The notes beneath the pieces were generated by a model that had not been told where the DNA came from, made no database searches, and was given only the letters and a program-made list of their open reading frames with translations. DNA of 50,523 nucleotides from an uncultured Phycisphaera sp. (lineage in GTDB: Bacteria > Planctomycetota > Phycisphaerae > UBA1845), in NCBI GenBank assembly GCA_964421865.1, contig CAYQZH010000003.1, positions 1 to 50,523 of the forward strand. The letters are read 5' to 3'. The position numbers and the translations under genes were made by a program. Positions 910-26,281 of the stretch are shown one piece after another; the stretch's first letter is position 1; every line of letters starts with the position of its first letter.

Positions 910-1055
910 CGCCGCCGCGTTTCCCGCGTCGCCCCCCTCCCCGCCCGGGCTCCTTGCGGTCGCACCGTTCGCGATGTAGACTTCCGCGATCACGCGCCGC
1001 GCTCCATGGCGTTCGGGGGCGGGCGCAGGTCCATAACCACGAGGAGGCTACCGCA

Positions 1056-1811
1056 ATGGCGGAGGTGAATCGCCGCGAAGTGTTGGGAACTCTGTCCGCC
1101 GTAGGCGGATTGGCCGCCGCGGGCGGTTGGATCGGGTTGACGGCCGACGAGACGGTCGCGCAAGAGGGCGGTGGGACTGCGGCAGCAGCGTCGCGGGAGT
1201 ACAAGCTTCCGCCGCTGCCCTATGCTCCCGATGCCCTCGAACCGCACATCGACGCTCAGACCATGACACTGCACCACGACAAGCATCACGCGGCCTATGT
1301 CAAGGGGCTCAACGACGCCATCGCCAAGCTCGAGGCCTCGCGCCAGGGCGGCGCGACGAGCGCGGGGCTTGACGCGATCCGCGATCTGACCGACTCGCTG
1401 GCCTTTAACGGGTCCGGGCACGTCCTACACTGCGTCTTTTGGGAGGATATGAAAAAGGGCGGCGGCGGAGAGCCGAAGGGCACGATTGCCAAGCAGATCA
1501 CCGGGGACTTCGGCAGCTTCTCCAACTTCCAAGCCCACTTCGCCACGGCGGCGAAGAAGGTGCAAGGCAGCGGTTGGGGCATTCTCGCCTGGGAGCCGCT
1601 CAGCAAGCGCTTGATCGTCCTCGGTGCGGAGAAGCATCAAAACCTCACCATGTTCGGCTGCGTTCCGCTGCTTGTGGTGGACGTCTGGGAGCACGCCTAC
1701 TACCTGAAATACCAGAACAATCGCGCGGGGTACGTAGATGCTTTCTGGAACGTCGTGAACTGGGAGAACGTCGATTCGCGACTCGCCGCGGCGACGAAAC
1801 TGACGACCTAG
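1056..1811 (+). CDS. Fe/Mn superoxide dismutase with twin-arginine (Tat) signal peptide
   Basis: ATG at 1056 is preceded by GAGGAGG (1041-1047). Tat-type signal MAEVNRREVLGTLSAVGGLAAAG. SOD signatures HHDKHHAAYV and DVWEHAYYLKYQN. The upstream part of ORF 954..1811 is Arg-rich and non-protein-like. Confidence 0.85.
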   Translation: MAEVNRREVLGTLSAVGGLAAAGGWIGLTADETVAQEGGGTAAAASREYKLPPLPYAPDALEPHIDAQTMTLHHDKHHAAYVKGLNDAIAKLEASRQGGATSAGLDAIRDLTDSLAFNGSGHVLHCVFWEDMKKGGGGEPKGTIAKQITGDFGSFSNFQAHFATAAKKVQGSGWGILAWEPLSKRLIVLGAEKHQNLTMFGCVPLLVVDVWEHAYYLKYQNNRAGYVDAFWNVVNWENVDSRLAAATKLTT

Positions 1812-2964: not shown

Positions 2965-4107
2965 TCACGCCGACCGGGCGGAGTCCACGATGCCATCCCC
3001 CGGCGCGACGCCGCGGAGCACGTTCTCGTACACCTTCACGTGCTGCTCGAGGCAGCGGCGCAGGCCGAATACCTCGTAGGCTTGGCCGCGGGCGACTTCG
3101 CGCGCCTTGGCAAGGGACGCACGGTCTTGGAGGAGCCTGAACAACGGTCCGACGACTCCCTTCCCCACGAACTGCTTGAAGAGCAGACCGTTCACTTTGT
3201 GGGCGATCAACTCGGCGACCGACGGAATCGCGGCGCCAATGACCGCCGCTCCTGCGGCCATCGCCCACGCGACGGCGGTCGATGAAACGTCGCCCCGCGC
3301 CGCCACTCCTTCGAGGCTCAGGACAAGGATCAACGCATCGGACACGGCGATCAACTCCTCGAATCGGTAGCGATCGCCTGGAGTAATGATGGTCGGACGC
3401 GAGGGAACCGTGGCCGCGAATCGCACGATGCGCTTCTGCTCTCTAGAGATTCCTGGAACGATGACCCGCAGATGACTGTCGAGATGGTTGACCAGTGCTG
3501 CGGCCCAGAAGGCCTCGAACGAACCGCCTGCGCGAGTCACCGGCTCGGGAACGATCACCAACGTATCGTCCTTGCCCACGCCGAGTTCCCCACGCAGCGG
3601 GCCGCGTCGGCAGCGGTTGATCCAGCCGAGGTCGATGCCCGGTCGAATCACGACGCACAGTTCGGGGGCGACGCCGCTCTCGATCAATCGTCGTCGCACG
3701 ATCCCGCAACTACAAATGATCGCGAATCCCTTCGGTCGCGCCAGCGTTCGCAAGAGCTTCGCTTCCCGCGTCGCAACAGCGGGATCGGACAGTTCGACGA
3801 CCAGCGGCCCGTCCGTCGCCGCTCGCGCCACCGCCGCCGCGTGCACTCCCCAGGCGTGCAGCAGATCGACCCGCCGCTCGTGGACCCACCTCGCCACCAG
3901 CGGCGACGCCAGGGCGTCGATCCGCGCCGGTCGTGCGAAGACTCGAACCGGGCGACCTAGCGGACGCAGAGTCCGGACCGCCGCCGGGTCGATGGCCGCA
4001 AGCGTAAGGGAATACCGATCCGCAGGAAGCCGTTCGAGCAAGACGCCGACGGCCGTACGCTGCTCCCATCCGGCGGACGCGTCGAACAAGTGACAGACGT
4101 GTGTCAT
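2965..4107 (-). CDS. glycosyltransferase, GT-B fold (GT1/GT4-like)
   Basis: ORF 2965..4134; likely start is the ATG at 4107 (MTHVCHLFDAS). C-terminal GT1-type nucleotide-sugar binding segment EGVAARGDVSSTAVAWAMAAGAAVIGAAIPSVAELIAHKVNGLLF. Confidence 0.6.
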   Translation of the reverse strand: MTHVCHLFDASAGWEQRTAVGVLLERLPADRYSLTLAAIDPAAVRTLRPLGRPVRVFARPARIDALASPLVARWVHERRVDLLHAWGVHAAAVARAATDGPLVVELSDPAVATREAKLLRTLARPKGFAIICSCGIVRRRLIESGVAPELCVVIRPGIDLGWINRCRRGPLRGELGVGKDDTLVIVPEPVTRAGGSFEAFWAAALVNHLDSHLRVIVPGISREQKRIVRFAATVPSRPTIITPGDRYRFEELIAVSDALILVLSLEGVAARGDVSSTAVAWAMAAGAAVIGAAIPSVAELIAHKVNGLLFKQFVGKGVVGPLFRLLQDRASLAKAREVARGQAYEVFGLRRCLEQHVKVYENVLRGVAPGDGIVDSARSA

Positions 4108-10113: not shown

Positions 10114-10635
10114 TTAGCTTTTCCCGCTGACGAGTTTCCGGGTGTTGCTTTCGAGCTTCTTCACGTCCCCGGAGCCGAGATCGACGTCCACGACGACGCC
10201 TGCGCGATCGATCCACAAGACGGTCGGAATGATCCCGTCCGGGACGCGGTACTGCTCGATGGTTTTCCCTCCTTCGAGGAGTACGCGTTGATTGAGCTTG
10301 TTCTGCTCGACGAATTGTTTGAGAATCTCCTTGTCCTCGTCCCAGGCGTTGACGGCCAGGACCACCAGTCCGTCCTTCTTGTACTGCTCGGCGATGCGGC
10401 TGATGTGCGGAGCCTCCGCACGGCAGGGCGGTCAGCGATAGGCGAAGAAGGCCAGAAGGACCGGCTTGCCGCGCTGATCGCTGAGGCGGACCTTGGCCCC
10501 ATCGAGGGCGGTTAACACAAAGTCCGGCGCGGGCTTGTTCTTCACCTGGGCGGCGAATCGACGTTCGGCCGCCCCCGCGCACCCGGCCAGACCCAGGATG
10601 GTCAAAACCGCCGCAGTCCGGTAAACCCTCCACAT
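10114..10635 (-). CDS. TlpA/ResA-like thiol:disulfide oxidoreductase lipoprotein, probable selenoprotein (UPPC redox motif; UGA at 10432..10434 read as Sec)
   Basis: ORFs 10432..10635 and 10114..10365 are in the same frame and separated by one TGA. Read-through gives GKPVLLAFFAYR-U-PPCRAEAPHISRIAEQYKKDGLVVLAVNAW..., collinear with the canonical FWATWCPPCRAE of TlpA/ResA. Lipobox LGLAGC at the N-terminus. Confidence 0.7.
10405..10421 (-). promoter_or_regulatory. SECIS-like hairpin downstream of the in-frame UGA
   Basis: mRNA GUGCGGA-GGC-UCCGCAC, a perfect 7-bp stem with a G-rich apex. It starts 10 nt 3' of the UGA at 10432..10434. Confidence 0.55.
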
Positions 10636-10935
10636 CTCAATCTCTCCCTCGAGTATCCACAGACCGGCGCGCCGACATCACGAGACGCCGCAACCGCGCC
10701 GTCGAATGCTAACCGGCGTATCTGTCGGCCGCAACACCGTTTCATTGTCGCTTGTGACGGGACTAGCGATGAGGTACAATGCCCGCCGTTCCATCCGGGG
10801 GATCGGGCCGATCGTTTGACGGCCGGCGTTGAGCCGTCCGGCGAACATAGAGGCGACGGTGCGATCGCGGACCACTGCTCAACGCGCCCGCCGACGGGCT
10901 GCAACCGAGGGGTTCCAATTCGGGAGGTGAAAACA

Positions 10936-12159
10936 ATGATTCTGGGCAATGCACGAATTCAGCGGCGGAGCCGTTGTGGAGTGTGCGTGGGGATTACGTT
11001 GGCCGGTCTGGCGTCCGGCCTTCCCGCTGCGGCGCAATCGGATCAGGACCAGACCACGCCGACGGGTTGGTGGTGGCTGACGAACGCCACGAGCGACCAG
11101 GTGAACGAACGGGTCAACCCCGGGTTTCGCATCACGGACCTCGAGGTCGTCCAGGCCTCGCCGCTCCGTTTCAACGCGGCCTTCGTCGAAAACTCCGGCG
11201 CGTACAACAAGGGGTGGTGGTGGTACTACAACGCGGATGTGCAGTTTCTCGATAACGCCTTGAGCAGTAACAACCCGCGGTTGATCGACCTGGAGCGCTA
11301 CGAGATCAACGGGCAGGAGTATTTCGCCGCGGTGATGATCAGCAACACGGGCGCCGAAAACCATCCGTTACTCGACGACGCAGAATGTCTCACTTGCTAT
11401 GAAACAGTACAGGTCGATGAACGGTGTCAGGACCGAGGGACGCATCTCCGTTTTCGAGCGATGGTTTGGGAGTACATGGAGTTTACGAGCGATCGGACGA
11501 TGGAGCGTAACGCGGAACGAAGACGCAAGGCATGTGAAGCGATTGAGCGGCGACAAGACCGGGCAAAGCGTGAGGGCAAGGAATGCTATCTACCACCGTA
11601 TTATGACCCGACGCGACCGGGGAGCCCTTGCGAAACCGAAGAGGAACGCGAGGGCGAGGAATACTGTCGAGGGCTGAAACTCTGTGAGAAATACGCCAAG
11701 CTGGCGATGATTCACGACCGCCTGGGCGTCACGTCGCAGCCGATCAACCCGTTTGAGGGTGACGGCGAAGCGGCCGTGGAGGGGTCGCCACGATATGCGA
11801 TGTGGTATCTCGCCGACTGCGAACAAATCGACCGTTATTCCGACGACGATCATCCGCGAGTCGTTCGATTCTGCCGAGAGGTAGCGAAGCATTTGAACGT
11901 GGACGCGCCGGACATTCCTGCACGACCGCCCGGCGACGGGCAAGGCGGGGTTGACTTGAATGTAACCAACAAAACGGAGATCATCATGGGTGATAAGTAC
12001 GAGAATGTGCAAGGATCAACGGTCGTCAGTCGATCCGAGGTCAAAGGCTCGGTCTACCGGACACGTGACGACCACTCGACGAAAGGGGCGACGGGCGGGG
12101 TGTGGAAGTGGCTTACGACCGTCGCTTGGCGCGGCATCAAGAACCGTTTGGGTTGGTGA
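10936..12159 (+). CDS. secreted hypothetical protein with two W-rich tandem repeats and a Cys/charge-rich C-terminal half
   Basis: ATG at 10936 preceded by GGGAGGTG. Signal peptide ...GITLAGLASGLPAAAQ. Two ~50-aa repeats starting GWWW (GWWWLTNATSDQVNERVNPGFRITDLE... / GWWWYYNADVQFLDNALSSNNPRLIDLE...). Confidence 0.6.
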   Translation: MILGNARIQRRSRCGVCVGITLAGLASGLPAAAQSDQDQTTPTGWWWLTNATSDQVNERVNPGFRITDLEVVQASPLRFNAAFVENSGAYNKGWWWYYNADVQFLDNALSSNNPRLIDLERYEINGQEYFAAVMISNTGAENHPLLDDAECLTCYETVQVDERCQDRGTHLRFRAMVWEYMEFTSDRTMERNAERRRKACEAIERRQDRAKREGKECYLPPYYDPTRPGSPCETEEEREGEEYCRGLKLCEKYAKLAMIHDRLGVTSQPINPFEGDGEAAVEGSPRYAMWYLADCEQIDRYSDDDHPRVVRFCREVAKHLNVDAPDIPARPPGDGQGGVDLNVTNKTEIIMGDKYENVQGSTVVSRSEVKGSVYRTRDDHSTKGATGGVWKWLTTVAWRGIKNRLGW

Positions 12160-15309: not shown

Positions 15310-15511
15310 CCATCGGCCCAACGACGCCTTAAACCGCTCTTGCCCGACGGCACGCACTCATCCATCCATCGCACCGGGGTTGACTCCATGCCGGCGTCAC
15401 GACGGACCGCGTTTCGGTTATCGGGCGACGGTTGGCACATGATTGAAAATCATGCGCTGAGTTTTCCGGCTCCGGCGTTATAATCAGCGACACTTCCAAC
15501 AGGTCTGGAAG

Positions 15512-15650
15512 CGGAGAGAAGAACATGCGCATTCGATTGGTCATCGGTTCGTTGATCGCACTCGTGGCCGTCGCACCCTCGCTGGGTGAGACGCCCTTGA
15601 GCACGGCCTTTACTTATCAGGGACAACTCAAACAGGGCGGCGTCCCGCTC
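15512..15650 (+). repeat. shared RBS plus leader module, copy 1
   Basis: 139 nt (13 nt upstream plus the first 42 codons) with 13 mismatches versus 18473..18611 by hand alignment. Confidence 0.85.
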
Positions 15651-18416
15651 AACGGCAACGTGAACTTGGAGTTTCGGCTCTTTGATGCTTTGACCGACGG
15701 GACTCTCGTCGGACCCCTTGTGGCCAAGAACGGCGTCCCCGTCACCAATGGACTTTTCACCGTGGACCTGGACTTCGGCGTCGAACCCTTCACCGGCCAA
15801 GCGTTGTTTCTGGAAATCGCCGTGCGATTGAACACCGCCGGCGCCTTTACCACCCTCAGTCCGCGGCAGGCGTTAACGCCTACGCCCTATGCCATCCGGG
15901 CGTTGATCGACGAGACGTTCGGTCTGCCTTTCGCGGCCACCATCGACCGGCCCGAGGATGCCTTCTCCATCACCAACCTCGGCGGAAATGCGGTGGTCGG
16001 ATCGGTGGCCGACGCGGGGACCGCAGCGGTCCGAGGTACGAACACGGGTCAGGGTCAGGCGGGCGTGTTTCAGACGACGAACGGTCTCAGCGTTTTCCCC
16101 GCGCTCGAAGCGAGTACGAACGCCTCCGCGGCGGCCTTCCGGAGCGCCAATCTCGGGATCGGCCCAGCGGCGGTGGTTGAGATTGCCAACGCCGGTAACG
16201 GAAGTACGGCCCTGGTCGCGGGTACGAATGGGCTCGGGAGCGCAGCTTTTCTCCTGGCCACCAATGCCCAGAACCCCAATCCCGTGCTTCTCTCTCGCAC
16301 CGCCGGTCTCGGCGAGGGCGGCGTGTTCGACCTCACGAACGCAGGCAACGCGGCGCCCGCGTTGGTGGCCCAAACGAACGGAGTGGGGTCCGCCGGACTG
16401 TTCGCCGCGTTCAACGTCCTGAGCAACTCCCCGACGCTTTTCGCCGGCACAATCGGAACGGGCAGCGCCGCGGACCTCCGCACGGGCGCTGGGGCCGTCT
16501 TTCTCCCTGGGAATCCGACGGCCACCCTGTCGGCGCTGAACAGCAGGGACGTGAGTTCCGCCGCCAAGGTTGAGAACAGCAACATCGACAACTCTGACGA
16601 GGCCCTGCTCGTGAAAACGCTGGGTCGCGGGTCCGCGGCCGTTTTCATCATTGACAATCCCGATCCTGGGGCGAGTTCCGGCAACCCGTCGGACGCGCTG
16701 TTCGCGAAAACGAACGGCCTGGGCCGCGCGGGCTTCTTTGCCATAGACGTCAACCCCGGCCCAGCTTCGTCAATCAGCGGAGGCGGCCCCAACAACATCA
16801 GTCCCGCGCTGGAAGCCAGGACCGACGGCGACGGACCGGCGGGTCGGTTCTCGATCAGCAATCCCGACGGTCCATCAACGGCCAACGCACTGGAGGCCAC
16901 GACCGAGGGGCTGGGCGGCGCAGCCCGTTTCGAGGTCTTCACGATCAACAGCGAGGCTGCCGCATTGACCAGCGCGACCCGCAGTGCGGAAACAGGCCAG
17001 GCGGCATTCTTCACCTCCGCGTCGGCCGTGAACACCGGCACGACGGTGGAAGTGATTCACACCGGTCTGGGGACAGCGGGGAGTTTCCAGACGCCCAACC
17101 CAACCAACGGCAGTGCGACGTTGACCACGACGACGCGCGGGCTCGGGCGAGCGGCTTCGTTCACCATCGAGAACGCCGATCCGGACAACGTCGTCAATGC
17201 CGCTCCGACAATGGAAGCCCGAACCAAGGCGCTCGGTCCGGCTGGTCGATTCATCATTGACCTCCCCACTGGCGGAACGGGCCAGGGACCGGTGAACAAC
17301 TCGCCCGCGGTGCACGCGACCACCAACGCCTCCGGCAACGCGGCCAAGTTCGAGAGCACGAACAGCGATTTCGTCAATCCCACGCTCGAGGTCACCAGCC
17401 AGGGCAAGGGGACCGTGGGTCGATTTGTGAGCAATAACACCACGAGCGCGGCCGCTACGATCGTCGGCCAAACGCAGGGGCTGGGCTCCGTGGCCGACTT
17501 CACAAACTTCAACTCCAATAACCTCAGTGCGGTGCTGAATGTGAGCACCAACGCGGCGGGCAACGCGAGTGCGGCCAGCTTCCAGAACACCAATCCGGCC
17601 AACTCAGGCGACGTGGTGGCCGCCCTGGCGAACAACTCTCGGCACGCGCTCTTTGCCAGGCAAAGCGGACCGGGCGAAGCGGCTCACTTTGAGATCGCCG
17701 ATCCGGGAAACGGCAACAACGCGGTGTTCATCAAGAACAACGGCGTCGGCGTCGCCTTGAGCGTCGAGAACGGAAACCCCAACGTCGCCGCCCTGGCCCT
17801 CGCCGTCCGGGGCAAGTCGGCCTTCAACGGACAAGTGGACATCCTCAGCTCGACTGGCGGGCCCGTACCCGTAAATATCACTGGCAACGTGGGCATCACC
17901 GGCGAACTGTGCGCCACGTCCGTCTGCGCCGCGGTCAAGAACTTTCGCATCGACCATCCGCTCGACCCGGAGAACAAGTACCTCTATCACGCCAGCGTCG
18001 AGAGCTCGGAGATGAAGAACATGTACGACGGGACGGTGGTGCTCGACGAGAACGGGCGAGCGACGGTCGCGCTGCCGGCATGGTTCGAGGCTCTGAACGA
18101 GAGCTTTCGATACCAGTTGACGGCCGTCGGCCAACCAGCGCCGAATGTGCATATCGGGCGGGAAATCGGCGACGGTCAATTCCAAATCGCCGGCGGCCCA
18201 CCGCGATCGAAAGTCAGTTGGCAAGTGACCGGCGTCCGTAAGGACGTCTACGCCCGGGCTAATCCGCTCTGGGTCGAGGCGGAAAAACCCGCAACCGAGC
18301 GCGGCAAGTATCTTGTCCCGGAGGCGTATAGTGTTTCCAAGGAAAGGCCCGTTAACTATCGCCCCAACACCGAGCAACCGGCCCCCACAGCGGTGTCCGA
18401 GGCCATCCCGCGTTGA
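15525..18416 (+). CDS. large secreted repeat protein (tail-fibre/adhesin-like, beta-solenoid-type repeats)
   Basis: 963 aa. Signal peptide MRIRLVIGSLIALVAVAPSLG, then N-module TAFTYQGQLKQGGVPLNGNVNLEFRLFD. About 16-18 degenerate G/A/N/T-rich repeats (N..PAL.A.T.G.G.AG.F). Conserved C-terminal module FRIDHPLDPENKYLYHASVESSEMKNMYDG. Confidence 0.75.
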   Translation: MRIRLVIGSLIALVAVAPSLGETPLSTAFTYQGQLKQGGVPLNGNVNLEFRLFDALTDGTLVGPLVAKNGVPVTNGLFTVDLDFGVEPFTGQALFLEIAVRLNTAGAFTTLSPRQALTPTPYAIRALIDETFGLPFAATIDRPEDAFSITNLGGNAVVGSVADAGTAAVRGTNTGQGQAGVFQTTNGLSVFPALEASTNASAAAFRSANLGIGPAAVVEIANAGNGSTALVAGTNGLGSAAFLLATNAQNPNPVLLSRTAGLGEGGVFDLTNAGNAAPALVAQTNGVGSAGLFAAFNVLSNSPTLFAGTIGTGSAADLRTGAGAVFLPGNPTATLSALNSRDVSSAAKVENSNIDNSDEALLVKTLGRGSAAVFIIDNPDPGASSGNPSDALFAKTNGLGRAGFFAIDVNPGPASSISGGGPNNISPALEARTDGDGPAGRFSISNPDGPSTANALEATTEGLGGAARFEVFTINSEAAALTSATRSAETGQAAFFTSASAVNTGTTVEVIHTGLGTAGSFQTPNPTNGSATLTTTTRGLGRAASFTIENADPDNVVNAAPTMEARTKALGPAGRFIIDLPTGGTGQGPVNNSPAVHATTNASGNAAKFESTNSDFVNPTLEVTSQGKGTVGRFVSNNTTSAAATIVGQTQGLGSVADFTNFNSNNLSAVLNVSTNAAGNASAASFQNTNPANSGDVVAALANNSRHALFARQSGPGEAAHFEIADPGNGNNAVFIKNNGVGVALSVENGNPNVAALALAVRGKSAFNGQVDILSSTGGPVPVNITGNVGITGELCATSVCAAVKNFRIDHPLDPENKYLYHASVESSEMKNMYDGTVVLDENGRATVALPAWFEALNESFRYQLTAVGQPAPNVHIGREIGDGQFQIAGGPPRSKVSWQVTGVRKDVYARANPLWVEAEKPATERGKYLVPEAYSVSKERPVNYRPNTEQPAPTAVSEAIPR

Positions 18417-18472
18417 TGTGTTGATTTCGGTTCGAGCGTGAGTTTGAGAGGCGAGAAAAACATGGCTGCAAA

Positions 18473-18611
18473 CGGAGAGAAGAACATGCGCATTCGATTG
18501 GTTATCGGTTCCTTGATCGCACTCGCATCCGTCGCACCCTCGCTGGGTGAGACACCCTTGACTACGGCCTTTACGTATCACGGCCAACTCAAAGAGGGCG
18601 GCGTGCCGCTC
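18473..18611 (+). repeat. shared RBS plus leader module, copy 2
   Basis: See 15512..15650. Confidence 0.85.
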
Positions 18612-20180
18612 GAGGGCACGGCCGACTTCCAGTTCACGCTGTGGGACGACGCCGGGGGCGGCAATCCGCCCATTGGCGGAACGCAAGTCGGCGGTGTGCA
18701 GGCGATCAACGCCTTGCCCGTGACCGCGGGCCTGTTCACCGTCACGCTCAACGGCGGCGGCGAGTTCGGGGGCAATGCCTTCAACGGAAACGCCCGCTGG
18801 CTTCAGATCGCGGTGCGCAGTCCGGCGGGCGGCGGTGTCTTCACCACGCTTTCCCCGCGTCAGGCGCTGACGGCGACGCCTCACGCCCTGTTCGCCCTGA
18901 GCGCCGCCACGGCGACGAGCGCCACGACGGCCACGACCGCGACCAACGCGACAAACGCAACGAATGCGTCAAATGCCACGAACGCGGCACAACTCGGCGG
19001 TATCAATGCAAGTGAGTATGTCACAGCGACAAGTGGCGGCACAAGCTTCATTCGCAATCAGGCGACTCTCCAACCAACCTCAAACTTCAATATCAGCGGC
19101 AACGGCTTTATCGGAGGCAACGTCGGCATTGGAACAGGAACTCCCGCTACCAAGCTTGATGTCAGAGGCAATCTGACCCTTGAAAACGGAGGCAGTCCGG
19201 GGCTTTTTACGGCGGCCAGCGGCGGCGAACAGAACAGGTATCTGACACTTCTCAACTCTCCCACGACTCAAACGGCTTCGGGTCTTAAAGCGGGCGGCGT
19301 TTTGGTTTCCGACGATTTTGGGTTTGCCAATCCGGGAAAGAACGATTTGATCGTTAAAGGGAATGTCGGCATCGGTACGGCTGCGCCGCAAACAAAATTA
19401 TCTGTTCTAACCACCGGCAACGGAATTACGCAGACAAACGGGACCGTGTCAGTCGGCTCGTATCTCAACACCAACCACGGCGCATTCGGCACGCAAACGG
19501 ATCATCCACTTTTCTTTTTCACCGGCAACCGGCCCGCGCAAATGACACTCGATACAAGCGGGCGATTTGGAATCGGCACTGCCACGCCGGCGGCGCTGTT
19601 GACGGTCTCTGGCTCGGGTATCTTCAGTGCTACTAGCGCGGCACGGTTCGATTTGTTCAATACGGTTGCGAATAAGGGATTCTTGCAAAACGTAACGGAC
19701 ACGGGCTTATGGCAAATCGCGACAACAGCCGGAGCGACCACGATGGTCATCAACCCGTCCGGAAATGTTGGCATCGGCACAATTGCCCCTAACGCACAAT
19801 TGCAAATCGCCGGAACAGGCACGAATGGTTTTACTCTTGGAGTCGAAGGAAACGTTACTCAAAACCTCGCTAGCGGCGGTTTTGCGAAGGCTATGGTTGT
19901 GGTTAATGCGAACGGGACGATTGCGCGGTGCTACAACGGAATTACCGGCGCGTCGACTGGAAACTGCGGATTCACGGGTATTCGGCTCGACACGGGATAC
20001 TACGTCGTAAATTTCGGTTTTCAGGTAAGCGACCGCTTTGCCGCTGTTACGTCTCAAGCTGACGCGTCAATGGTTTACGGCCCTGACATACTGGGCCGAA
20101 TCCTGGAGGAGATCGCAGTATATACCTATGCCCCTGCCGGCAATTCGTTTGATGCTGAGTTTACAATCATCGTGTATTGA
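18486..20180 (+). CDS. secreted tail-fibre-like protein
   Basis: Start at MRIRLVIGSLIALASVAPSLG (ATG 18486). (T/N-A)n collar ATATSATTATTATNATNATNASNATNAAQLGG and repeated GNVGIGT..P..KL units, as in phage-tail-fibre-like proteins. The distal half is AT-richer. Confidence 0.75.
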   Translation: MRIRLVIGSLIALASVAPSLGETPLTTAFTYHGQLKEGGVPLEGTADFQFTLWDDAGGGNPPIGGTQVGGVQAINALPVTAGLFTVTLNGGGEFGGNAFNGNARWLQIAVRSPAGGGVFTTLSPRQALTATPHALFALSAATATSATTATTATNATNATNASNATNAAQLGGINASEYVTATSGGTSFIRNQATLQPTSNFNISGNGFIGGNVGIGTGTPATKLDVRGNLTLENGGSPGLFTAASGGEQNRYLTLLNSPTTQTASGLKAGGVLVSDDFGFANPGKNDLIVKGNVGIGTAAPQTKLSVLTTGNGITQTNGTVSVGSYLNTNHGAFGTQTDHPLFFFTGNRPAQMTLDTSGRFGIGTATPAALLTVSGSGIFSATSAARFDLFNTVANKGFLQNVTDTGLWQIATTAGATTMVINPSGNVGIGTIAPNAQLQIAGTGTNGFTLGVEGNVTQNLASGGFAKAMVVVNANGTIARCYNGITGASTGNCGFTGIRLDTGYYVVNFGFQVSDRFAAVTSQADASMVYGPDILGRILEEIAVYTYAPAGNSFDAEFTIIVY

Positions 20181-21380: not shown

Positions 21381-23105
21381 ATGACGAACGGTTTTCCCAC
21401 GCACAACGAACCGTCAGGTTCGAGCAGCGTTGTACCTGCGCACCAACACGGACGCGGCGCCTTCGCTGCGTTGGCGGCAGGCGTGACACGTTCCCTGCCT
21501 ACTTTTCTCGTTCTCGTGTGCCTTTCGGCCCTGGGCTACTGGGGCCACCACTCGGGATGGAAGGCACCGAAGTTTTCCGATCTGTTCGGCGCGCGGGTCG
21601 TGCAGGAGGAGGAAGATTGGTGCGTTGAACACGGTGTGCCGGACTCAAAGTGCATCAAATGTCACCCGGAACTCGCGGGCGAGAGCGGTGCCGACTGGTG
21701 CAAGGAGCACGGCGTCCCGGAATCGAGATGCACGATCTGTCACCCGGGGATTTTGACCAAAGGCGTCGCCGGCGATTGGTGCAGGGAGCACGGCGTTCCC
21801 GAGTCCAACTGCACCCTATGCCATCCGGAAATCGCCGTCAAGGGATCGCCTCAGAAGGGGACGCCTGATGTTTCCGTGGTGGTCGCGCAAGACGACACGG
21901 CGCTGAAGACATCGCCGGGTTCCGTCCGCGCAGGGCGGCCCGCAAAGGACCCGTCGACTTGTCAGACACACGCCATGCGCGTGCAATTCGCTTCGGCGGC
22001 CAGCGTCGAGAAGGCGGGAGTCAAGTTGGGAAGCGTCGTCGAACGACCGATGGCGGACACGCTGACCGCGAACGCCGAGATCGACTACGACCGCACACGG
22101 TTGGCCCAGGTATCCAGCCGTGCGTCCGGCGTCGCGTGGTGGGTGGGTAAAGAAGTCGGCGATCGCGTGAGTCGGGGTGAGGTGCTCGCGCTGGTGGATT
22201 CCGCGGACATCGGACGCGCCAAGGCGGAGCTTCTACAGGCCGCCGCGCAGCGGCAGGTCCGGGCGCAGACCCTGGAGCGGACGCGAAGTTTGAGCCTAGA
22301 CAATATCGGCTCGCAGGCGAATTTGCAGGAAAAAGAGGCGGCGTTTCGCGAGGCGGAAATTCGTTTGTTTATCGCACGCCAGACGCTGATCAATCTGGGC
22401 TTCATGCTGTCTCCGGACGGCCCGTCGGACATCCCCAACGAACGGGAGTTACTGCTTCTGGGAGTGCCGCAGAGCATCCGCGAAAATCTTGACGCCTCCA
22501 ATACCACGGCCAATCTGCTTCCCATCACGGCGCCCTTGGATGGCGTGGTGACCACTCGGAACATCGTCGCCGGCGAAGTCGTCGAGACCTCCAAGCCCTT
22601 GTTCGTCGTTGCCGACACCAGCCGCATGTGGGTGATGATCGATGTTCCCCAGTCGCTCGCGAATCGAGTGGCACTCGGACAGCGCGTTCGTTTCCGCGCC
22701 GAACCCAAGTCGGACAACGCGGTCTTAGGCACGATCGCCTGGATCAGCACGGCCGTCGATGAACAGACCCGCACGGTCAAGGTTCGCGCGGACATGGACA
22801 ACGCGGAGGGACGGCTGCTTGCCGGAATGTTCGGCCAGGCCGCGATCACGATTCGCGAATCACCGACCGCAATCGCCGTCCCGGATGAGGCCGTCCAGTG
22901 GGAGGGTTGCTGCCACGTCGTCTTTGTGCGGCTCACGGACGAGATATTTCAGCCGCGAAAGATCAAAGCGGGGGCGCGCAGCGGCGGCTTCACCGAGGTT
23001 CTCGTCGGCGTACTTCCCGGCGAAGTCGTCGCCACGACCGGAAGCCACGTCCTGAAGTCGGAAATCCTCAAGAGCAATTTGGGGGCCGGCTGCGCAGACC
23101 ACTAA
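21381..23105 (+). CDS. efflux RND periplasmic adaptor (HlyD/CzcB/CusB family) with triplicated N-terminal Cys/His motif
   Basis: 574 aa with an N-terminal TM segment. Three tandem DWC.EHGVP(D/E)S.C..CHP(E/G)(I/L) repeats (nt ~21615-21830). Typical MFP barrel-sandwich/coiled-coil body (...GEVLALVDSADIGRAKAEL...). Confidence 0.85.
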   Translation: MTNGFPTHNEPSGSSSVVPAHQHGRGAFAALAAGVTRSLPTFLVLVCLSALGYWGHHSGWKAPKFSDLFGARVVQEEEDWCVEHGVPDSKCIKCHPELAGESGADWCKEHGVPESRCTICHPGILTKGVAGDWCREHGVPESNCTLCHPEIAVKGSPQKGTPDVSVVVAQDDTALKTSPGSVRAGRPAKDPSTCQTHAMRVQFASAASVEKAGVKLGSVVERPMADTLTANAEIDYDRTRLAQVSSRASGVAWWVGKEVGDRVSRGEVLALVDSADIGRAKAELLQAAAQRQVRAQTLERTRSLSLDNIGSQANLQEKEAAFREAEIRLFIARQTLINLGFMLSPDGPSDIPNERELLLLGVPQSIRENLDASNTTANLLPITAPLDGVVTTRNIVAGEVVETSKPLFVVADTSRMWVMIDVPQSLANRVALGQRVRFRAEPKSDNAVLGTIAWISTAVDEQTRTVKVRADMDNAEGRLLAGMFGQAAITIRESPTAIAVPDEAVQWEGCCHVVFVRLTDEIFQPRKIKAGARSGGFTEVLVGVLPGEVVATTGSHVLKSEILKSNLGAGCADH

Positions 23106-23119
23106 CCTGGAGCGATCGT

Positions 23120-26100
23120 ATGTTTCTGAACTGGATCATCCACTGGTCGCTGGCTCGCCGCGGGCTCGTGATGGGATCCTTTGCGGCCTTGGTCGTGCTC
23201 GGGCTGATCGCCGCGCGCTACCTGAATATCGATGCCTTCCCGGACACGACGCCCGTGCAGGTGCAGATCAATACGGTGGCGCCGGCGTTAAGCCCTGAGG
23301 AGGTCGAGCGACAGATCACCATGCCGATCGAACAGGCCATTAGCGGCCTGCCCGACCTGGTCAACGTCCGCTCGATCTCCAAGTTCGGTCTGTCGCAAGT
23401 GGTGGTCAACTTCGAGGACCGCGTCGAAATCTATTTCGCGCGGCGGCTGGTCAGCGAGCGGCTCGGGACCGTGGCGCTACCGTCGGGAATTGAGCGGCCG
23501 GAAATGGGGCCGGTGGCGACCGGCTTGGGAGAAGTCCTTCACTACATCGTGACCTCCGACGCGCGGGACCTCACTGAGCTGCGAACGATCCAGGACTGGA
23601 CCATTAAGCCCGCGCTTCGGACCGTTTCCGGAGTGGCCGAGATCAACAGTTGGGGTGGTTTCGAGAAGCAATACCAGGTACGCATCGACCCGACACGGCT
23701 GATCAAGTTCGGGCTCTTGTACGACGAAGTGATCGAAGCCGTCGAATCCAACAACCTCAACGCCGGCGGCGGCAACGTCTCCGCGGGCGGCGGCATGCAG
23801 CTCGTCCAAGGCATTGGCCGCGTAGCGAACCTCGACCAGATCGGCGACATCGTGATCAAAGCGAAAGACGGCGTCCCCGTGCACGTGCAGGACGTGGCCG
23901 ACCTTGAAATCGGCGCGGAAATCCGCCGCGGCGCCGTGAGCTACGGCGGCAAGGGCGAGGCCGTACTCGGCTTGGGGTTCATGTTGATCGGTCAGAATGC
24001 ACACGAAGTCACCTCGCGACTGAAAGCGAAGTTGGAGGAGATTAAAGGGAACCTTCCCTCCGACGTGCGGGTGGAAACCGTCTATGATCGCACGGAGCTT
24101 GTCGACCACGTAATCGACACGGTCCGCAACAACCTGTTCGAAGGCGGGCTGCTCGTCATCGCAACGTTGTTCATGTTTCTCGGCAACCTACGGGCCGGCC
24201 TCATCGTCGCCCTGGCCATTCCGCTCTCGATGCTGTGTGCCTTTTCGGGAATGCTCCAGTTTGCGATCGCCGGAAGCCTGATGAGCTTGGGCGCGATTGA
24301 CTTCGGCCTCGTCGTGGACAGCGCCGTGATCCAGATCGAAAACGCCACGCGGCACATCGCTCATGACCGCCGCCAACGCAACCTCATTGACGTAGTTCGA
24401 GATGCGGTCATTGAAGTTCGCAAGCCGACCATGTTCGGCGAGTTGATCATCATGCTGGTCTACGTTCCGATCCTTACGCTGGAAGGCGTTGAAGGCAAGC
24501 TCTTTCGGCCGATGGCGCTGACGGTCATTTTCGCGCTTGCGGGTTCCTTGATCCTGTCGGTCACGCTCATTCCCGTTCTTGCCAGCCTGATGCTTCCACG
24601 GCGGATGGAAGAGCGCGACCCGCTGCTCGTTCGTCTCTGTGCGTGGCTCTATCGCCCGGTACTCCGCGCGGTCATGCGGAACAACGTCGCCATGATCGCC
24701 TTCGCCGTCTGCGCGCTCCTCGCCGCGGTCATCATCGCGCGGGGCTTAGGCTCGGAGTTCATTCCACGGCTCTCCGAAGAAGCGATCGTAATCAACGTGG
24801 TGCGTATTGCCGGCACAGACCTGAGCGAGTCCGTGCGCTACAACACGCAAATAGAGCGGGCCATCCTCACCGCCTTTCCAGACGAGGTGCGTCACGTGTG
24901 GAGCCGCGTGGGCACCGCCGAGGTAGCAACCGACCCCATGGGGGTCGAGCTTTCGGACATCTTCATTTCGCTTCAGCCTCGATCGGGTTGGAAAAAGGCC
25001 TCAACCCAGGCGGAACTCATGGCCCTCGTTCAAAAAGAGCTTCGCGACATGCCGGGGCAGCGCTTCGCGATGAGCCAACCGATCGAAATGCGGATAGACG
25101 AGATGATCGCGGGCGTACGCGGTGACGTGGCCATGAAGCTCTACGGTGATGATTTTGACGTGCTGGTTCGGAAGGCACAAGAGATCGGAACCATTCTAGG
25201 GTCGATCCCAGGGGCGGCCGACCTGAGTACGGAGCAGTTGACCGGTCAACCCGTGTTGCAGATACGTGTCGACCAGGAAGCCCTGGCGCGTTACGGCGTC
25301 CCCGCGAAGGCGGTCATGCAGCTTGTGGAGTCCATGGGGACCAAGAATCTGGGCGACGTGGTCGAGGGTCAGCTTCGTTTTCCGCTGGTGGCGCGGCTTC
25401 CCGATTCGGCCAGGCAAGACGCGGAAGCGATCGGTCGGATTCAGCTTTCGACGCCGGCCGGGCAACGTATCCCGCTCTCCAGCCTCGCACACATCGCAGA
25501 AGTAGAGGGACCGTCCACCATTTCGCACGAATGGGGACAGCGGCGGACCACGGTGCAAGTGAACGTGCGCGGGCGCGATGTGGGGAGCTATGTGGCCGAG
25601 GCACAGCGCAAAATCGCGGCGGGCGTTTCGCTGCCTTCCGGCCGCTACCGCATCGAATGGGGCGGGCAGTTTGAGCACTACGAACGCGCTCGGAATCGCC
25701 TCATCATCGTGGTCCCACTTGTGCTCGCCATGATCTTTGCCCTGCTTTACGTCACCTACAGGTCCGTGGCCGATGCGTTGCGAGTGTACGTCGGCGTACC
25801 GTTTGCCATCGTTGGTGGAGTCCTCTCGCTGTGGGTGCGCGACATGCCCTTCTCGATCTCGGCCGGCGTCGGGTTTATCGCCTTGTCCGGCGTCGCCGTA
25901 CTGGGCGAGATGGTCCTCGTCTCCTATGTCCGCCAGCTTTTGGCGCGTGGGCTGGCGCTGCGCGAGGCGATTGAGAACGCCGCCGTGACTCGCTTGCGCC
26001 CCGTTTTGATGACAGCGCTGGTTGCATCACTGGGCTTTCTGCCCATGGCCCTGAGCACGGGCGTCGGCGCCGAGGTGCAGCGCCCGCTGGCGACCGTCGT

Positions 26101-26281
26101 AGTCGGCGGCGTGATCAGTAGTACCTTGCTGACCTTGCTGGTGTTGCCCGCCATTTACTTGGTGTTTGGCGCGTCCGCGACTCGCCGACGCGAGCACGTA
26201 GAACGCGAAGAAGCGGTAAGTACCGTAGCGGAACGGCAGGATACGGCGTCCCCGGCGTTAGTTGCCGTGCTGGATTCTTAA
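23120..26281 (+). CDS. CusA/CzcA family heavy-metal efflux RND transporter
   Basis: Start at MFLNWIIHWSLARRGLV (ATG 23120). ~1050 aa with the 12-TM RND architecture. HME-type segments AIDFGLVVDSAVIQIEN and VGFIALSGVAVLGEMVLVSY. Confidence 0.9.
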   Translation: MFLNWIIHWSLARRGLVMGSFAALVVLGLIAARYLNIDAFPDTTPVQVQINTVAPALSPEEVERQITMPIEQAISGLPDLVNVRSISKFGLSQVVVNFEDRVEIYFARRLVSERLGTVALPSGIERPEMGPVATGLGEVLHYIVTSDARDLTELRTIQDWTIKPALRTVSGVAEINSWGGFEKQYQVRIDPTRLIKFGLLYDEVIEAVESNNLNAGGGNVSAGGGMQLVQGIGRVANLDQIGDIVIKAKDGVPVHVQDVADLEIGAEIRRGAVSYGGKGEAVLGLGFMLIGQNAHEVTSRLKAKLEEIKGNLPSDVRVETVYDRTELVDHVIDTVRNNLFEGGLLVIATLFMFLGNLRAGLIVALAIPLSMLCAFSGMLQFAIAGSLMSLGAIDFGLVVDSAVIQIENATRHIAHDRRQRNLIDVVRDAVIEVRKPTMFGELIIMLVYVPILTLEGVEGKLFRPMALTVIFALAGSLILSVTLIPVLASLMLPRRMEERDPLLVRLCAWLYRPVLRAVMRNNVAMIAFAVCALLAAVIIARGLGSEFIPRLSEEAIVINVVRIAGTDLSESVRYNTQIERAILTAFPDEVRHVWSRVGTAEVATDPMGVELSDIFISLQPRSGWKKASTQAELMALVQKELRDMPGQRFAMSQPIEMRIDEMIAGVRGDVAMKLYGDDFDVLVRKAQEIGTILGSIPGAADLSTEQLTGQPVLQIRVDQEALARYGVPAKAVMQLVESMGTKNLGDVVEGQLRFPLVARLPDSARQDAEAIGRIQLSTPAGQRIPLSSLAHIAEVEGPSTISHEWGQRRTTVQVNVRGRDVGSYVAEAQRKIAAGVSLPSGRYRIEWGGQFEHYERARNRLIIVVPLVLAMIFALLYVTYRSVADALRVYVGVPFAIVGGVLSLWVRDMPFSISAGVGFIALSGVAVLGEMVLVSYVRQLLARGLALREAIENAAVTRLRPVLMTALVASLGFLPMALSTGVGAEVQRPLATVVVGGVISSTLLTLLVLPAIYLVFGASATRRREHVEREEAVSTVAERQDTASPALVAVLDS

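Follow-up and report, generated by a model that had tools for sequence, protein, structure and literature searches.

Thioredoxin-fold selenoproteins with a UxxC motif, in which selenocysteine (Sec, U) takes the first position, are an established class of enzymes; among the catalogued families are the "Prx-like thiol:disulfide oxidoreductase" (PF00578, UxxC or UxxU) and the "thiol:disulfide interchange protein" (UxxC), both recorded since 2004-2006 (PMC1794560) and listed in the current review (PMC13188914). A sequence-only reading assigned to this class a gene on the minus strand of a 50,523-nucleotide stretch of DNA from an uncultured Phycisphaera sp. (GenBank assembly GCA_964421865.1, contig CAYQZH010000003.1, positions 1 to 50,523; hereafter the window), proposing that a TlpA/ResA-like lipoprotein is encoded there across an in-frame UGA. 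Kryukov and Gladyshev 2004 is reportedly among the sources for the Prx-like family. This redoxin gene resembles members of that family in its PF00578 domain, its UxxC motif with Sec first, its Cys homologues and its selenocysteine insertion sequence (SECIS) directly downstream, and by domain and motif it fits this family, for which WP_010940744.1 is the reference protein. It differs in that the cited members of the Prx-like family are Deltaproteobacteria and Clostridia (PMC1794560), whereas the clade of the window gene belongs to the Phycisphaerae and Planctomycetota and is marked by conservation of the lipobox and by a 17-nt SECIS that hardly varies. The nearest named protein match is a Syntrophus hypothetical protein, which is 41% identical across 69% of the query.

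ResA, a thiol-disulfide oxidoreductase that acts in cytochrome c maturation in Bacillus subtilis and B. anthracis, carries an N-terminal membrane anchor. It provides the closest structures by both sequence and fold, and it has in common with the window protein the C-x-P-C motif, a Glu at position C+3, the cis-Pro loop, and a membrane-tethered, extracytoplasmic location, which for the window protein is predicted from its lipobox. Unlike in ResA, Sec replaces the first Cys and the anchor is that of a lipoprotein, and in none of the loci does the redoxin gene have cytochrome c maturation genes as neighbours. Etrx1 and Etrx2 of Streptococcus pneumoniae serve as a model for electron supply to extracytoplasmic repair enzymes. 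They too (PDB 2yp6 and 4hqz) are lipoprotein-anchored extracytoplasmic TlpA-like redoxins, related to the window protein in sequence and structure, but they are Firmicutes Cys enzymes of lower structural similarity (TMt 0.75-0.81), and the msrAB partner gene is not found beside the Phycisphaerae redoxin genes. The ResA-like WAxxUGC selenoproteins (NF041054; cd02966; PMC13188914) share the TlpA/ResA-like fold, the active-site Sec and a W/F-A-x-x-U context. We considered membership in NF041054 itself and rejected it: the motif is U-x-x-C rather than U-G-C, the score is 42.4 bits against 300, and the protein has 173 aa against a 354-position model.

Within the Planctomycetes, the full machinery for Sec decoding has been reported from Gemmata, Isosphaera and two Porphyra-associated strains, one of which also has selenoprotein candidates of the thiol-disulfide and AhpC/TSA types (PMC4807772). 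The planctomycete P1 candidates named "thiol-disulfide isomerase-like thioredoxin" and "AhpC/TSA" (Kim et al. 2016, PMC4807772, S9 Table) resemble the window gene in phylum, in broad class, in being split by gene callers around an in-frame UGA and in having Cys in the closest homologue. P1, however, does not belong to the Phycisphaerae, and two of its thiol-disulfide candidates have no detected SECIS (PMC4807772). Our literature search found no paper linking the Phycisphaerae with selenocysteine and none describing this redoxin clade, although a 2026 database for which more than 64,000 bacterial genomes were screened for known selenoprotein families (PMC13326102) may already hold members of it. 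Here, from comparisons of the window gene with its orthologues, we conclude that the locus is very probably a single intact gene for a genuine Sec-decoded UxxC ResA-like lipoprotein.

Results

One reading frame with a single internal UGA

The minus-strand frame from 10635 to 10114 comprises 173 codons, with TGA at 10434..10432 as its sole internal stop and TAA at 10116..10114 as its terminal stop. Its read-through translation is MWRVYRTAAVLTILGLAGC...LLAFFAYR*PPCRAEAPH...SGKS*, in which the UGA is flanked by GKPVLLAFFAYR before and PPCRAEAPHISRIAEQYKKDGLVVLAVNAWDE after, and the product begins M-W-R-V-Y-R-T-A-A-V-L-T-I-L-G-L-A-G-C. The two pieces on the open reading frame (ORF) track, 10432..10635 and 10114..10365, lie in this one frame and are split by that TGA alone, with all coordinates as the sequence-only reading had given them; the second piece begins at an internal GTG because the ORF finder requires a start codon. 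A scan of the window for other ORF pairs split by one TGA returned, besides the redoxin gene, nothing but antisense-frame artefacts.

When the stop is replaced by Cys, the translation matches the Pfam families AhpC-TSA (PF00578; 1.1e-23, 84 bits against a gathering cut-off of 26) and Redoxin (PF08534; 2.6e-19, 69.9 bits against 26.6). Its top PDB sequence match is ResA (4nmu, E = 4.5e-20), whose W-C-K-P-C-E-K-E aligns onto R-U-P-P-C-R-A-E of the window protein. The fold was tested on an AlphaFold2 (AF2) model of the Cys homologue P0001, which is 72% identical to the window protein. That model (predicted local distance difference test, pLDDT, 92.8) places C68-x-x-C71 ahead of helix 69-84, and Foldseek aligned it with ResA at a template modelling (TM) score of 0.90-0.93 normalised to the target and a root mean square deviation (rmsd) of 1.4-2.4 Å. 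Three residues past the second Cys, at the position of ResA Glu80, Glu74 is invariant in a 41-sequence alignment; a structure of the ResA E80Q variant is available (PDB 2h1b), and by analogy with ResA this residue may have a functional role. The Pro137 column is likewise invariant across the alignment.

The proposed TlpA/ResA-like identity thus holds at the level of the Pfam families, the PDB match to ResA and the ResA fold of P0001. It does not extend to ResA or TlpA proper, for which the scores fall below the NCBIfam thresholds (NF002854, 85.6 bits against a cut-off of 170; NF047696, 44.7 bits against 230). Because of these scores, we conclude that the window protein is ResA/TlpA-like in fold and is an orthologue of neither.

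The UGA recurs at the catalytic Cys position in orthologues

We searched for homologues of the protein and then collected DNA from three sources: a genome scan, a metagenome scan and the truncated protein matches. The protein search returned full-length Cys homologues, many matches of ~100 residues that start just past the CxxC motif, and one N-terminal fragment that terminates exactly at the motif, a pattern of matches characteristic of orthologues that gene callers have divided. An in-frame TGA was present at the first codon of the CxxC motif in 16 of the 21 loci from the genome scan, all of them metagenome-assembled genomes (MAGs) labelled Phycisphaerae, Phycisphaeraceae, Planctomycetota, Planctomycetaceae or "uncultured bacterium." The same was true of 31 of the 38 metagenome loci and of all five truncated protein matches that were looked up. 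In total there were 50 distinct Sec-form sequences, with ~40-90% amino acid identity, and the stop at the motif codon was always TGA and never TAA or TAG.

The UGA falls on the exact Cys column of the Cys homologues, which have TGC or TGT there, and its counterpart in ResA is the first Cys of WCKPC, so that its placement at the nucleophilic first Cys of the redox motif is borne out. Past the UGA, the amino acids are conserved and synonymous sites are free to vary, and we therefore take this region to be translated and under purifying selection. The sequence-only reading had allowed that orthologues in relatives might prove degenerate; instead, the 50 orthologues keep both the UGA and the hairpin that follows it.

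These data bear directly on the possibility that the locus is a pseudogene or a sequencing or assembly error, with the TGA a recent nonsense mutation or a miscalled Cys codon and both pieces dead fragments. A single TGC/TGT-to-TGA change would suffice, gene callers do report two fragments, and there are close Cys-form relatives (P0001 and, at 70% identity, P0002). However, the N-terminal fragment of the window gene is also present in three other assemblies of the same or a 99.5%-identical organism, each with the TGA, and one of these is a strain variant that keeps the codon despite 16 mismatches in 2,962 bp (99.46% identical). Since the TGA recurs in these assemblies and in the 50 orthologues, down to ~40% identity and always as TGA, a sequencing error or recent pseudogene is excluded. 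Purifying selection downstream, free synonymous change, and no frameshift or extra stop also stand against this explanation, which we consider vanishingly improbable.

Routine annotation does split the locus, as had been anticipated: the gene is called as pieces of 67 aa and 83 aa in three assemblies, and one Sec-form orthologue is represented at NCBI by a C-terminal fragment of 93 aa (MCH8036671.1, in the P0019 cluster) under the name "hypothetical protein." This record comes from a MAG labelled Proteobacteria/Pseudomonadota, and its contig is possibly mis-binned or mis-labelled.

A conserved hairpin lies immediately downstream of the UGA

The perfect hairpin GUGCGGA-GGC-UCCGCAC that the sequence-only reading placed ten nt past the UGA is present as described, and folded alone it has a minimum free energy (MFE) of -9.9 kcal/mol. 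The published model of the bacterial SECIS (bSECIS) calls for a loop of 3-9 nt with a G in one of its first two positions (typically G[G/U]N), an upper stem of 4-16 bp, an MFE of -7.5 kcal/mol or lower, and a distance of 16-37 nt from UGA to loop (PMC13188914). With its 3-nt GGC loop, G at loop positions 1 and 2, 7-bp stem, 17-nt spacing and -9.9 kcal/mol, the window hairpin agrees with all four criteria and so has the place and shape expected for a bacterial SECIS. A GGC triloop 17 nt past the UGA is likewise seen in the SECIS that the BSepDB paper prints as its example (PMC13326102). Perfect 7-bp hairpins with loops of 3-9 nt occur at a background rate of 0.61 per kb per strand in the window (63% G+C), which gives a chance of ~1% that one would start in the ~21-nt SECIS-compatible interval. 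The hairpin in a single sequence alone is only suggestive, and its significance comes from conservation.

The distance between the UGA and the hairpin is identical, with zero indels, in 50 of 50 Sec forms. RNAalifold returned a consensus structure that is exactly the 7-bp stem; 98.9% of the 350 pair cells in the 50-sequence alignment are paired as standard pairs, and changes on both sides occur in three of the seven pairs (10 cells). In control analyses, 0 of 500 shuffles reached any of the five measures, and pairing fell to 27-69% when the 3' arm was slid. Pair 29-39 (CG in 40 sequences, AU in 4, UA in 3, UG in 2, GC in 1) is, as read from the alignment, a full stepwise path from C-G through U-G to U-A. 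In locus L061, three pairs are replaced together (GGCGGGA-GGU-UCCCGCC), which leaves the stem perfect and takes the peptide from RAEAPH to RREVPA. A lower-stem extension (columns 21-23 with 45-47) was rejected, with pair 23-45 broken in 11 of 17 sequences and only the 7-bp stem kept by RNAalifold.

Codon usage across the hairpin is similarly constrained. Codon entropy in the six hairpin codons was 0.31, 0, 0.15, 0.15, 0.71 and 0 bits, compared to ~1-2 bits at conserved residues elsewhere, and the preferred codons were CGT (42/44), GCG (40/40), GAG (46/47), GCT (44/45) and CAC (45/45). Elsewhere in the gene, Arg and Ala columns seldom use CGT and GCT, and synonymous freezing is limited to the six hairpin codons. 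Judging from these comparisons, we conclude that the hairpin is under RNA-level selection.

The codons around the hairpin also speak to a different arrangement, in which the UGA would end a 67-residue lipopeptide, the hairpin would act as a pause site or attenuator, and the C-terminal part would be separate or unmade. An internal GTG at 10365 does open an 83-aa ORF, and some orthologues have a GTG at codon +5 that gene callers take as a start. Yet no start codon is conserved past the UGA (40 sequences have GCG at codon +5), and the codons just past it (x-P-C-R) are conserved as protein. Moreover, the thioredoxin fold covers both pieces, with Cys71, Glu74 and helix alpha-1 lying between the UGA and any restart, and the hairpin is not followed by the U-run that marks a terminator. 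Such a split gene or regulated termination is, in our estimation, highly improbable.

Decoding of the UGA

Translation past the UGA could in principle proceed without Sec, either through genome-wide reassignment of the codon to Trp or Gly or through hairpin-stimulated insertion of Trp, Cys or Arg by near-cognate tRNAs. Hairpins downstream of a stop codon can promote read-through in other systems, and Sec machinery was found neither in the window nor in the flanks of related loci. However, TGA terminates 8 of the 22 Pfam-supported genes in the window and is also the true stop of many orthologues of the redoxin gene, so UGA is not reassigned globally. The internal UGA is confined to the catalytic Cys column, where Trp or Arg would kill the CxxC centre, and the geometry of the hairpin, with its 17-nt spacing and G-G in a small loop, is that of a SelB-type bSECIS. 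The occurrence of Sec-to-Cys switches via TGT, one step from TGA, also fits a functional equivalence of Sec and Cys. We therefore view read-through without Sec as improbable, and decoding as Sec is the explanation that we favor.

Several observations nonetheless weigh against Sec decoding. The 50.5-kb window has no selA-, selB- or selD-like genes, no tRNA and no Rfam matches, and the ~300 kb of sequence flanking related loci likewise yielded no selA, selB, selD or tRNA-Sec. The sequence-only reading had already remarked that these genes and tRNA-Sec are missing from the window, and the tRNA, Rfam, Pfam and tblastn scans agree: Pfam annotation of ~37 window ORFs gave zero Sec-pathway genes, ARAGORN found no tRNA-Sec in the window and 59 loci, and tblastn with E. 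coli SelA, SelB and SelD (unverified query sequences) gave no match in the window or any of the loci. In the one survey of planctomycete genomes for Sec genes that our literature search turned up, the cultured Phycisphaera mikurensis was included and is not among the four genomes listed with full Sec machinery (PMC4807772). As for the hairpin, its 81-nt context shows no extra stability relative to shuffles (z = -0.06), and the stems of loci L007 and L058 are weakened (-6.0 and -3.2 kcal/mol). Covariation is found in just three of the seven pairs, two of them from one sequence, and conservation of the hairpin is partly protein-driven, since a strongly conserved peptide is encoded there. Finally, Rfam gave no match to the hairpin at gathering score across the whole window or at E <= 10 on 10300..10520, the bacterial SECIS being without a general model.

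Distribution of Sec and Cys forms

At the motif position, TGC is found in the most distant homologues (L014, L017, L018, L020, L021, L059, L060 and L062), and these forms have no hairpin or only a fragment of it. Three other Cys forms have TGT, which is one step from TGA: L033 (P0001, TGT at 729), L034 (P0002, TGT at 2678) and L039 (P0003, TGT at 1343). All three TGT forms have an intact or nearly intact hairpin, and in a neighbour-joining tree each is nested separately among TGA clades. The simplest reading of these sequences is that Sec is ancestral in the radiation and that at least three recent, independent switches from Sec to Cys left a relic SECIS behind. We are more tentative about a broader claim, that uncultured Phycisphaerae share, across the class, an ancestral selenoprotein lipoprotein of which this gene is a representative, with widespread Sec decoding implied and at least three TGA-to-TGT reversions that retain a relic SECIS; this is possible, but we hold it with less than even confidence.

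One locus, L019, has a second redoxin paralogue in the Cys form (WAVGCGPCRMEMPH; ~3480-3979, plus strand) directly downstream of the Sec-form gene, making a tandem Sec/Cys pair.

Features of the gene and its surroundings

The features of the redoxin locus are collected in Table 1. The lipoprotein signal that had been noted at the N-terminus stands: the signal peptide of the window protein ends in the pattern [LVI][ASTVI][GAS]C, and nearly all orthologues have a [LVT]-[ATS]-G-C lipobox at the corresponding position. Once processed, the protein is predicted to begin with a lipidated Cys19. For P0001, the AF2 model shows residues 3-17 as a helix of their own at the N-terminus, modelled with lower confidence.

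Table 1. Coordinates of the redoxin gene and its parts in the window
Feature	Position	Strand	Basis and remarks
Complete selenoprotein coding sequence, ResA/TlpA-like redoxin with probable Sec at residue 68	10114..10635	-	Translation, Pfam, PDB match, full-length collinear orthologues
Shine-Dalgarno-like GGGAG, 8 nt upstream of ATG 10635..10633	10644..10648	-	Read from sequence; putative function
Signal peptide ending at lipobox L-A-G-C	10579..10635	-	Sequence and orthologue conservation; predicted processing
Lipobox L16-A17-G18-C19	10590..10579	-	Sequence
In-frame UGA, probably read as selenocysteine; residue 68, nucleophilic first position of redox motif	10432..10434	-	Assemblies and orthologues
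Redox motif U-P-P-C (Sec68, Cys71) at N-terminus of helix alpha-1	10423..10434	-	Alignment to homologue CxxC and ResA; AF2 model of P0001
10-nt spacer CCGCCCUGCC from UGA to stem; with the 7-nt 5' arm, puts the apical loop at UGA+17 nt	10422..10431	-	Sequence; 50 Sec forms
Candidate SECIS hairpin, overlapping codons R72-A-E-A-P-H77	10405..10421	-	Fold, RNAalifold consensus, covariation, codon entropy
Hairpin 5' arm GUGCGGA	10421..10415	-	
Hairpin loop GGC	10414..10412	-	
Hairpin 3' arm UCCGCAC	10411..10405	-	
Glu74 codon GAG, third base = first loop nucleotide	10414..10416	-	Invariant; ResA Glu80 position
Pro137 codon, invariant proline of thioredoxin-fold cis-Pro loop (..IPT..)	10225..10227	-	Invariant column

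The neighbours of the redoxin gene in the window, a RimO-like gene, a gene for an unknown 447-aa protein and KARI, lie beside it in no other species. In one subclade (L002, L003 and L028-L039), queA-like and ArfB-like (GGQ motif) genes are found upstream and a convergent gene for a ~800-aa HEAT-like protein downstream, identities that come from our reading of the ORF translations. Genes for cytochrome c maturation, CcdA/DsbD, Sco or Msr are absent from the immediate neighbourhood in these loci. As there is no shared redox neighbour, neither the substrate nor the electron donor can be guessed from gene context.

The divergent 447-aa neighbour ORF (10816-12159, plus strand) has no Pfam match, is rich in Trp and in charged and Cys residues, and is conserved only in other assemblies of the same organism. 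Elsewhere in the window, a 160-bp direct repeat with 88% identity (15498-15657 and 18459-18618) occupies the 5' ends of two adjacent ORFs without a Pfam match, 15525-18416 (963 aa) and 18438-20180 (580 aa), which look like tandem paralogues with a common N-terminal segment. An Fe/Mn superoxide dismutase ORF (954-1811, plus strand) has a TTG start and ~80 residues ahead of the Sod_Fe_N domain, and either the enzyme is exported with a long leader or the start is over-extended. The ORFs for an HlyD-type membrane-fusion protein (21381-23105) and an AcrB-type resistance-nodulation-division (RND) pump (22898-26281), both on the plus strand, overlap by ~200 nt as listed; the start of the latter is probably further downstream, its Pfam match beginning at residue 81.

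Discussion

If the gene is expressed as we propose, the hairpin 10 nt past the UGA, with its 7-bp stem and GGC loop, would serve as a bacterial SECIS during translation and would recruit a complex of SelB, GTP and Sec-tRNA(Sec), so that the UGA would be decoded as Sec without termination. The ribosome would then melt the hairpin and read the same nucleotides as R-A-E-A-P-H, the start of helix alpha-1. The Sec translocon would export the precursor, which would receive its lipid at Cys19. In the extracytoplasmic space, U68 would attack disulfides, or sulfenates, of its substrates as a selenolate, Cys71 would resolve the mixed intermediate into a selenenylsulfide, and re-reduction would presumably come from a membrane electron carrier of the CcdA/DsbD type. 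In this scheme, it is the dependence on SelB and tRNA-Sec, the incorporation of selenium, the lipidation, the substrate and the electron donor that we infer.

The general understanding of Sec decoding and of UxxC redoxins is unchanged by this gene, and it would not surprise a specialist. Its practical consequence is for annotation: the locus deserves a single selenoprotein gene call in place of two fragments or a pseudogene, and dozens of Phycisphaerae MAG and metagenome records, in which the pieces now stand as separate calls, need correcting likewise. It also offers an example of dual coding, in which an RNA signal lies over a conserved peptide, with synonymous freezing, C-G/U-G/U-A covariation and a relic SECIS after the switch from Sec to Cys. 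If our interpretation is true, a minimal 17-nt SECIS has stayed nearly invariant while written into the codons of the R-A-E-A-P-H start of a ResA-type helix, and the orthologues make up a natural series of Sec/Cys replacements within one extracytoplasmic enzyme.

For the organisms themselves, the recurrence of the UGA and hairpin indicates that many uncultured Phycisphaerae of groundwater- and sediment-type metagenomes may use selenocysteine. The predicted presence of Sec in an exported, lipid-anchored thiol-disulfide reductase points to a need for selenium in the redox maintenance of their cell envelope.

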